In this document: positions 3,477 through 3,818 of the stretch, piece after piece
How the letters are laid out: each line of letters starts with the position of its first letter
Numbering within the stretch: the stretch's first letter is position 1
IMG/VR virus record: IMGVR_UViG_2671180884_000017
Direction: 5' to 3' (one strand)
Length of the DNA: 4,348 nt
Source of the DNA: a virus
Lineage: Duplodnaviria > Heunggongvirae > Uroviricota > Caudoviricetes
Position numbers and translations under genes: made by a program
The notes under the pieces: model-generated
Databases searched by the model: none
The model's input: the letters and a program-made list of their open reading frames with translations, nothing else
What the model was told of the DNA's origin: nothing

Positions 3477-3617
3477 CTACTGCTTACACTGTAAGAACGC
3501 CGCAAACTCCGCTCCCCACAAATTCAGCCGGAACTCACACAGTGAACCGTGCAACATCCAGATGGTGAAGATAACCGTCATGCAAATTGTGACGGTGATG
3601 AGCGATTTTTGCGACAT
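3477..3617 (-). CDS. hok: Hok/Gef-family type I toxin (small membrane-depolarising peptide), 46 aa
   Basis: Not in the ORF track (below its size cutoff). Minus-strand ATG at 3617..3615 with SD GGAGA (complement of 3626..3630) and an 8-nt spacer. Translation: MSQKSLITVTICMTVIFTIWMLHGSLCEFRLNLWGAEFAAFLQCKQ, stop TAG at 3479..3477. It has a single N-terminal transmembrane helix followed by the SLCE-x-R ... G-x-E-x-AAF pattern characteristic of Hok/Gef/PndA/SrnB toxins, and is closest in my recollection to HokA-like members (TWM..SLCEL ... AAFLACK). Confidence 0.8.
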   Translation of the reverse strand: MSQKSLITVTICMTVIFTIWMLHGSLCEFRLNLWGAEFAAFLQCKQ

Positions 3618-3720
3618 AACGCTTGTCTCCTGAATGGAGAGGCGCTAACCTACTACTTGTGAAGGTTGTACGGTCAGGGCCTCGGGTTAACGTTAAAGTT
3701 GACTCGGGGCCTTTCCACAT
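3535..3720 (-). CDS. mok: mok-like leader reading frame overlapping hok out of frame (modulator of killing), 61 aa
   Basis: ORF-track entry 3535..3720 (-). It starts 103 nt upstream of the hok ATG, so it is in a different frame, and it ends inside hok. This is the arrangement of mok in hok/sok loci, where hok translation is coupled to mok. The SD is only moderate (GAAGG, 4-nt spacer). The protein itself (MWKGPESTLTLTRGPDR...) has no recognisable features, as expected for mok. Confidence 0.45.
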   Translation of the reverse strand: MWKGPESTLTLTRGPDRTTFTSSRLAPLHSGDKRYVAKIAHHRHNLHDGYLHHLDVARFTV

Positions 3721-3784
3721 CAGGCCTTCAGGTTCACCCTCCAGCCATCAGCCGAAAGGCACCCACGCATACTGTACGGTTTTT
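3700..3784 (+). ncRNA. sok: Candidate sok-like antisense RNA covering the mok SD and start; boundaries approximate
   Basis: Inference from the hok/mok architecture: Sok is transcribed antisense across the mok initiation region. Candidate plus-strand promoter is TTGTAC (3666..3671), a 16-bp spacer, then TAACGT (3688..3693). A T-run at 3780..3784 could be the 3' end, but no convincing terminator stem precedes it. No structural validation was possible. Confidence 0.25.
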
Positions 3785-3818
3785 GTCTCCTTCCGGCAAT
3801 CCGTATTACAACTGCCTG

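Follow-up and report, generated by a model that had tools for sequence, protein, structure and literature searches.

A probable intact hok/sok-type toxin-antitoxin cassette of the 46-residue Hok group in the late region of a Shiga toxin phage

The only large intergenic gap in a 4,348-nucleotide stretch of Caudoviricetes DNA (IMG/VR record IMGVR_UViG_2671180884_000017; the whole stretch is called the window below) is very probably the site of an intact type I toxin-antitoxin cassette of the hok/sok type. The cassette belongs to an abundant group of 46-amino-acid (46-aa) Hok toxins and forms a moron among the late genes of a Shiga toxin (Stx) phage. The gap measures 422 bp, as stated in a preliminary description of this DNA made from its letters alone, and is bounded by the end of a 169-aa open reading frame (ORF) at 3819 and by the ATG of the next gene at 3396; elsewhere in the window, minus-strand genes follow one another with short gaps only. 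The hok locus is already known, in that it has been annotated and catalogued and its peptide has been tested, and it counts as a typical member of an established family.

Results

The toxin and its earlier annotation

The hok coding sequence lies on the minus strand (3477..3617) and encodes a 46-aa Hok/Gef toxin, MSQKSLITVTICMTVIFTIWMLHGSLCEFRLNLWGAEFAAFLQCKQ. A Shine-Dalgarno (SD) sequence, GGAG (3630-3627), sits 9 nt 5' of its ATG, and the preliminary description, which had reported a 46-codon minus-strand ORF reading 3617→3477 behind a good SD, gave the translation exactly. Its assignment of the product to the Hok/Gef family was borne out by profile searches. Pfam HOK_GEF (PF01848) matched residues 8-44 with 33.2 bits against a gathering cut-off of 22 (E=4e-8), and PHROG_251, "MokW-like host killing," matched the full length of the peptide (2.8e-24). 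The best NCBIfam match was the HokA equivalog NF007290, which scored 38.4 bits and missed its cut-off of 89; by sequence, the peptide is HokA-like and is not HokA itself.

The peptide has the N-terminal hydrophobic helix expected of the family, and all seven family residues are present in it, as M1, C12, T14, L26, C27, E28, and E37. The corresponding reference positions are those of the published Hok logo (M1, C16, T18, L30, C31, E32, and E41), each of which is shared by more than 80% of Hok peptides. The preliminary description had singled out three cysteines and an LQCKQ ending as departures from the family. These features are normal for Hok: C12, C27, and C44 are family positions C16, C31, and C48, a cysteine is found at logo position 48 in about one-third of the family, HokA included, and the C-terminal ending (...AAFLAC...) is HokA-like. 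When the hok frame was compared with that of an O145 prophage copy, all six nucleotide differences were synonymous, which shows purifying selection on the frame. A chance ORF was ruled out by the profile scores together with these six synonymous differences, and the 46-aa peptide is a type I toxin of the Hok/Gef family. A search with the PADLOC defence-system profiles matched neither Hok nor five of the six genes around it; the sixth, an 83-aa ORF, gave only marginal matches (E ~0.005).

The toxin had also been presented as hidden and as likely to be missed by standard annotation, and this view did not survive comparison with current databases. RefSeq protein WP_000078907.1 ("Hok/Gef family protein") is identical to the 46-aa peptide, PGAP already calls the ORF, under the name "MokW-like host killing" or "Hok/Gef family protein," in RefSeq records of phages and of E. 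coli, and the hok locus was matched in ~1,600-1,750 of 5,426 complete E. coli genomes. The exact peptide is furthermore entry 72_1589, in the high-abundance cluster 72, of the Hok catalogue of Escalera-Maurer et al. (bioRxiv 10.1101/2025.08.07.668861). The amino acid sequence is identical to that of 72_1589 and WP_000078907.1, with no difference at the protein level, and the ORF belongs to PHROG_251. According to the text and supplementary list of that preprint, the arabinose-induced toxicity assays, for which 72_1589 was cloned (LRP157), found 42 of 45 Hok constructs toxic; the non-toxic ones are given there as 19_179, 60_1482, and 69_1540, so that 72_1589 is not among them. For cluster 72, the catalogue analysed the coding sequence alone and left Sok, Mok, and the mRNA fold undescribed (10.1101/2025.08.07.668861).

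The word "hidden" is true of the locus in two narrow senses only: (i) the original 1999 record of phage 933W leaves the gap between lom and L0129 without annotation, while hokW, mokW, and sokW are annotated elsewhere in it, and (ii) the Rfam sok model misses the locus at its gathering score. The suggestion that the toxin represents a divergent subfamily holds insofar as the 46-aa Hok group is a distinct cluster at 60% identity, yet this group is abundant and previously described, and the implied novelty falls away. A literature search for a hok locus by lom in 933W found nothing, and a preprint on Pas small RNAs mentions Rfam sok matches near PasA and says no word on this locus.

A predicted folding switch in the hok mRNA

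The RNA features of the locus were examined in an alignment (A1) of 23 distinct copies of the cassette, 13 from E. coli and 10 from Salmonella, and the conservation figures below refer to this set. A weak hok promoter is predicted on the minus strand at 3771..3799, with a -35 box TTGCCG (3799-3794), a 17-nt spacer, a -10 box TACAGT (3776-3771), and a predicted +1 at G3764. The homologues keep a TAnnnT -10 box and, 7 nt downstream of it, an invariant GGGTGCC, and the E. coli copies have TTGCC(G/C) 17 nt farther up. An automatic promoter scan of 3300-3900 at a threshold of 9/12 returned no site.

The predicted body of the hok mRNA (3409..3764, minus strand) runs from the 5' GGGUGCC to just beyond a 3' pairing box, limits that follow from the homology block and the fold. 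Its 5' end is a tac-like box, GGGUGCCUUUCGGCUGA (3748..3764), with two alternative pairing partners on the same strand: an fbi-like box near the 3' end, UCAGCCGAUAUGGCACCC (3412..3429), and an internal box, GGAAAGGCCCC (3706..3716). In the predicted fold of the full-length RNA (3764→3395), the 5' GGGUGCC..UCGGCUGA is paired to the 3' box (3429-3412), and the minimum free energy has a z score of -6.0. Folded without the 3' box, the 5' end pairs instead with the internal box (3716-3706), and the 5' hairpin so formed is helix 1 of the Rfam sok model. The preliminary description had proposed that the minus-strand RNA be folded in search of hok-like elements; tac/fbi-like 5'-3' pairing, a target hairpin, and a sok-type antisense promoter (see below) are indeed predicted.

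Both alternative pairings are conserved. RNAalifold applied to the 23 copies recovered the 5'-3' closure and 15 other helices, and the resulting consensus structure was 97.8% paired, as against 36-43% when the partners were slid by 1-3 columns. Fourteen pairs had changed on both sides, a number reached by none of 500 shuffles. Within the 5'-3' helix, columns 1-7:359-365 were 98% paired and columns 10-12:353-355 all changed on both sides; the alternative 5' hairpin was 96.5% paired, with compensatory changes at columns 10:51 and 11:50. The 5' columns 10 and 11 accordingly covary with the 3' box and with the internal box alike, and such joint covariation is the pattern that would be expected of a tac/fbi-type switch. 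A hok-type folding switch, in which the 5' end pairs with the 3' box and refolds to the internal box, is thus predicted, and its elements are conserved in all 23 copies.

Two further hairpins are predicted. A CUCC anti-SD sequence (3639-3636) and the hok SD (3630-3627) are predicted to form a local hairpin (3627..3639, minus strand) that would mask the ribosome-binding site; both segments are invariant in the alignment, hence covariation is uninformative about it either way. Directly 3' of the hok stop codon lies a conserved hairpin (3445..3468, minus strand; helix 16 of the consensus), which is 99.5% paired and in which five of nine pairs have changed on both sides. We had considered the plus-strand T-run after this hairpin as a terminator for the antisense RNA and rejected it, as the A-run opposite belongs to a conserved helix (columns 299-303:333-337). 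With the 3' untranslated region (3476-3409), which contains the post-stop hairpin and the 3' pairing box, the locus spans ~3409-3799 by homology and RNA structure. The limits first given for it, 3477-3818, had left this region out.

A possible hok terminator was found farther downstream. This minus-strand hairpin (3294..3317), which looks like a strong intrinsic terminator, GACGCCUGCCUUAAAAAGCAGGCGU followed by UUUGUUUUG (tail UUUUGUUUUG), lies inside the phrog_610 coding sequence, ~95 nt 3' of the hok 3' box, and has weak Rfam matches (GlmZ terminator, BSnc120). In the P2-like and lambdoid contexts described below, a terminator is found 24-37 nt beyond the 3' box. Speculatively, the 3294-3317 hairpin could terminate hok transcription in lysogens and be read through by the antiterminated late transcript. 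As to the phrog_610 gene itself, the profile begins at residue 9 of a 133-aa ORF, which suggests that the true start is ATG 3396 (125 aa); ATG 3420 of the longer form lies within the hok 3' pairing box.

A conserved promoter for a predicted Sok antisense RNA

A sok promoter is predicted on the plus strand at 3623..3651, where it overlaps the SD region of hok on the opposite strand. It consists of a -35 box TTGTCT (3623-3628), a 17-nt spacer, and a -10 box TAACCT (3646-3651). All 23 copies keep a -35 box (TTGNNN or TTTACT), a spacer of 17-18 nt, and a -10 box TA(A/T)CCT, and the complement of this -10 box is the best-conserved segment of the alignment (0.96 mean column identity).

The Sok RNA predicted from this promoter would be ~60 nt long (~3658..3720, plus strand, both ends being estimates) and would comprise an 18-nt single-stranded 5' tail (3658-3675) and a 16-bp hairpin (3676-3713) followed by UUCC; its fold has a z score of -4.7. 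The preliminary description had suggested an antisense RNA around 3700-3790, a position that the conserved promoter does not support. No part of the module varies more than the mRNA segment complementary to the Sok tail (0.76 mean column identity), which fits a tail that would set the specificity of each Sok. By comparison with the R1 system, the loop of the target hairpin would carry a CUNR motif of the YUNR U-turn type. The Rfam sok model (RF01794) aligned end to end over 3764-3607 of the window (E=6.5e-6).

The overlapping 61-aa frame

Whether the locus has a third component depends on a 61-aa ORF on the minus strand (3535..3720, read 3720→3535). The preliminary description had noted that this ORF overlaps hok in another frame, which is correct, and had equated it with mok, positioned exactly as in hok/sok loci, which is not: its start is not at the position of the R1 mok start, and in homologues the frame is broken or lacks a start. 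If the locus were a canonical three-gene hok/mok/sok system, the 61-aa ORF would be mok, its translation would be coupled to and required for that of hok, and Sok would act by blocking the mok start. We consider this unlikely. The ORF is present in the window, with GAAGG 4 nt upstream of its ATG, and it overlaps the hok start. However, an ORF with a canonical start codon that overlaps the hok start was found in only 6-7 of the 23 copies, at three different start positions, and in the other 16-17 the overlapping frame is absent or frame-shifted. The copies in P13374 and O157:H7 encode an identical Hok and carry, in the loop of the Sok hairpin, a 1-nt indel that ends the frame from the ATG at mRNA position 45 after 8 codons. 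None of the 10 Salmonella copies has a start codon at that position, where the bases instead pair and covary with the 5' box. Changes silent in hok are non-synonymous in the 61-aa frame (5 of 5 in one Stx-phage copy, L012). Finally, the ORF starts upstream of the Sok hairpin, outside the target of the Sok tail, and its SD is outside the predicted Sok, while at the position equivalent to that of R1 mok, after the GAGG of the Sok hairpin, there is no AUG, GUG, or UUG. The 61-aa ORF is probably not a functional mok, and the 46-aa Hok group as a whole does not conserve an overlapping mok frame.

A looser form of translational coupling may operate in E. coli. Each of the 13 E. coli copies has an AUG or GUG at mRNA positions 45-47, and in ~8 of them the ORF that begins there extends at least to a conserved UAG that lies 28 nt short of the hok ATG, near enough for the anti-SD hairpin to be opened. 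In the E. coli copies, opening of this hairpin could thus be helped by a short leader ORF whose length varies.

Phage context and distribution of the cassette

Stx phage P13374 shares 99.3% identity with the window over positions 1-3800, and of the 196 phage records that the window matches, most belong to Stx-converting phages. The window is the late region of a 933W/P13374-like Stx phage, in which the hok cassette is carried as a moron; in 933W itself, this hok locus occupies the lom-L0129 gap at ~45.4-45.9 kb. A BLAST search for distant copies (query 3395-3805) showed that a block of ~390 bp (3412-3800) recurs at 77-99% identity and is always annotated as Hok/Gef. It was found in four settings: (i) in Stx phages, between lom and the phrog_610 gene (four loci), (ii) at the end of P2-like prophages, adjoining ogr (three loci and four more in Salmonella), (iii) in lambdoid prophages, between gpJ and a tail-fibre gene (two loci), and (iv) in a urease island (one locus). 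In Salmonella enterica, the cassette also occurs in tandem arrays of 2-3 copies of the 46-aa hok, spaced 500-700 bp apart (four loci, for example L013, 1355-3056), and each tandem copy has its own variable Sok-tail region. Because the edges of the block coincide with the predicted -35 box and with the 3' pairing box, the whole predicted transcription unit moves as a cassette.

The upstream edge of the cassette in the window has features of its own. Homology to P13374 and 933W ends at ~3800, exactly at the hok -35 box, and those phages have lom there. The 169-aa ORF on the far side (4328→3819) has weak matches to the C-terminal part of the tail-tip protein J and to tail-fibre proteins; the closest genome has no annotation over the segment matching 3800-4348 and labels the neighbouring tail-tip-fibre gene a pseudogene. 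The hok promoter segment of the window is identical to that of the two lambdoid copies, and the body of the cassette is of the Stx-phage type; from this combination, the cassette appears to be a recombination joint.

The same distribution bears on whether the locus might be an inactive relic, comparable to the disrupted or non-functional chromosomal hok loci of K-12 and merely carried along in the phage. Such loci have precedent, since hokA, hokB, and hokC on the chromosome have been reported to lack post-segregational killing (cited in the introduction of 10.1101/2025.08.07.668861), and in the window no canonical terminator follows the 3' box and the promoters are weak. We nevertheless find little room for a relic: the ORF is intact and evidently under purifying selection, elements that are 77-99% identical have retained the promoters, the anti-SD, the post-stop hairpin, and each of the two alternative helices, the unit continues to spread as a precise cassette, and the preprint's account has the peptide as toxic (10.1101/2025.08.07.668861).

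A second hok/sok module is present in the same phage genomes, the hokW-sokW module of Sp5/933W (Takada et al. 2021, PMC8621323), and the shared phage family and the RefSeq/PHROG name "MokW-like host killing" might suggest that the two are one and the same. Mapping of the hokW primer sequence and the annotation of 933W refuted this, and we give it virtually no credence. In 933W, hokW, mokW, and sokW lie at 58,460-58,734, ~13 kb away from the present locus and on the other strand, opposite relative to the late genes. HokW is a 51-aa, Gef/RelF-like toxin (MKQQKAM...) with 35% identity to the 46-aa peptide, and its module, unlike the present one, has an annotated in-frame mokW. With the Rfam sok model, the hokW leader of this phage type, which served as a positive control, scored 113.5 bits, compared with 35.6 bits for the lom-L0129 copy. 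The 933W-type phages thus hold two unrelated hok/sok modules, at 5512-5674 and 18611-18785 of the 933W segment analysed (L021), of which the Rfam gathering score catches hokW alone.

Neighbouring genes and side matches

The 83-aa ORF mentioned above (1559-1810, minus strand) is named "bacteriocin" in RefSeq. It encodes a glycine-zipper membrane peptide that belongs to PHROG_594, a group of unknown function, and has sub-threshold Pfam matches to Gly-zipper_YMGG and to class IIc bacteriocins; the RefSeq name looks like a weak similarity call. The phrog_611 profile begins at residue 27 of a 243-aa, TTG-initiated ORF, which leaves its start codon ambiguous (2925-3000). In the 933W segment, near attR (21137-21225 of L021), the small RNA family sRNA-Xcc1 (RF02221) was matched with 69.1 bits against a gathering score of 53.

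Discussion

The locus resembles the R1 hok/mok/sok (parB) system in its layout. Both encode a single-helix toxin with an L-C-E motif, in both the -35 box of the antisense promoter, here a predicted one, overlaps the hok ribosome-binding region and the -10 box is TA(A/T)CCT (TATCCT in R1, within the sequence ...CATCAGGATAGCCTCTTACCGCGCTTTGCGCAAGGAG), and in both the 5' end can pair alternately with a 3' box or an internal box and a hairpin follows the stop codon. They differ in the toxins, which share 30% identity (46 aa here, 52 aa in R1), and in the residue near the C-terminus, where a cysteine is hard-coded here and R1 has a tyrosine. They differ also in that the present locus lacks both a start codon where R1 mok begins and a conserved overlapping mok and in that it falls below the gathering score of the Rfam sok model. 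The closest characterised protein is HokA, with 40-48% identity between the 46-aa peptide and the peptides of the HokA cluster. Both have an MxQK start, a TWM motif, SLCE, and an AAFL-x-C ending, and both cysteines are directly encoded. The 46-aa peptide is 4 residues shorter than HokA and reads HG before SLCE in place of the RD of HokA, and its gene is found on phages and not at the chromosomal hokA site.

The analysis shows membership of the Hok/Gef family, purifying selection on hok, and conservation of the promoters and of the two alternative helices, and the preprint adds the toxicity of the peptide. On this basis we infer the transcripts, their ends, their 3' processing, and the effect of Sok along the following lines. 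The weak promoter (-10 at 3776-3771) would give rise to a hok mRNA of ~355 nt or longer that starts at G3764. In the full-length RNA, the 5' box would pair with the 3' box (3412-3429) while the anti-SD masks the ribosome-binding site, and the message would be inert. Loss of the 3' box would allow the 5' end to refold onto the internal box (3706-3716) and thereby expose the leader hairpin targeted by Sok. Sok (~3658 to ~3720, plus strand), made from the promoter that overlaps the hok ribosome-binding region, would pair with the leader through its variable, copy-specific 5' tail, and the message would be silenced or destroyed. Should Sok decay faster than the hok mRNA, the 46-aa single-helix peptide would be made and would damage the inner membrane.

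Several points weigh against the conclusion that the cassette is an intact hok/sok-type system. Both promoters are weak 8/12 matches that were placed by hand on the strength of conservation alone. The covariation of the 5' helices derives mainly from one split between E. coli and Salmonella and hence from few independent events. In the Stx phage context, the 3' box lacks an obvious terminator behind it, the first one being that in the next gene. The locus scores 37.1 bits with the Rfam sok model, short of the gathering score of 59. No mok is conserved, though R1 hok needs mok for its translation. The toxicity of 72_1589 comes from a preprint, where it follows from the text and Table S2 and not from a figure. 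We have taken these points into account in considering an intact cassette of the 46-aa Hok group very probable.

How Sok would act where no classical mok is made is a matter for more tentative proposals. It is possible, though we would not favour it strongly, that in the 46-aa Hok group Sok binds the message 30-90 nt 5' of the hok ribosome-binding site and there triggers cleavage or blocks a standby or short-leader-ORF step, in a manner more like that of tisB/istR-1 than of R1, and that in Stx phages Q-antiterminated late read-through could in addition override Sok by interference at the sok promoter, timing Hok to lysis. The orientation of the cassette in Stx phages is the same as that of the late genes, and we speculate that late read-through could add to Hok expression.

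The roles that the cassette could play are suggested by analogy. The prophage Hok of hokW-sokW is toxic, is repressed by Sok, is switched on at induction, and aids phage release (Takada et al. 2021, PMC8621323), and the present cassette could likewise help with lysis and phage release at induction. Alternatively, as in R1, it could stabilise the element that carries it or exclude other phages.

As a discovery, the locus adds little. It does draw attention to the presence in 933W-type phages of two unrelated hok/sok modules, of which only hokW-sokW has been studied functionally. For this abundant Hok group, the comparison of copies supports a hok-type folding switch and a conserved sok promoter, and it finds no conservation of the overlapping mok frame, a matter on which the published catalogue had not decided. 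Moreover, the sok genes of this Hok group fall below the Rfam gathering score and are therefore systematically missed by RNA annotation.

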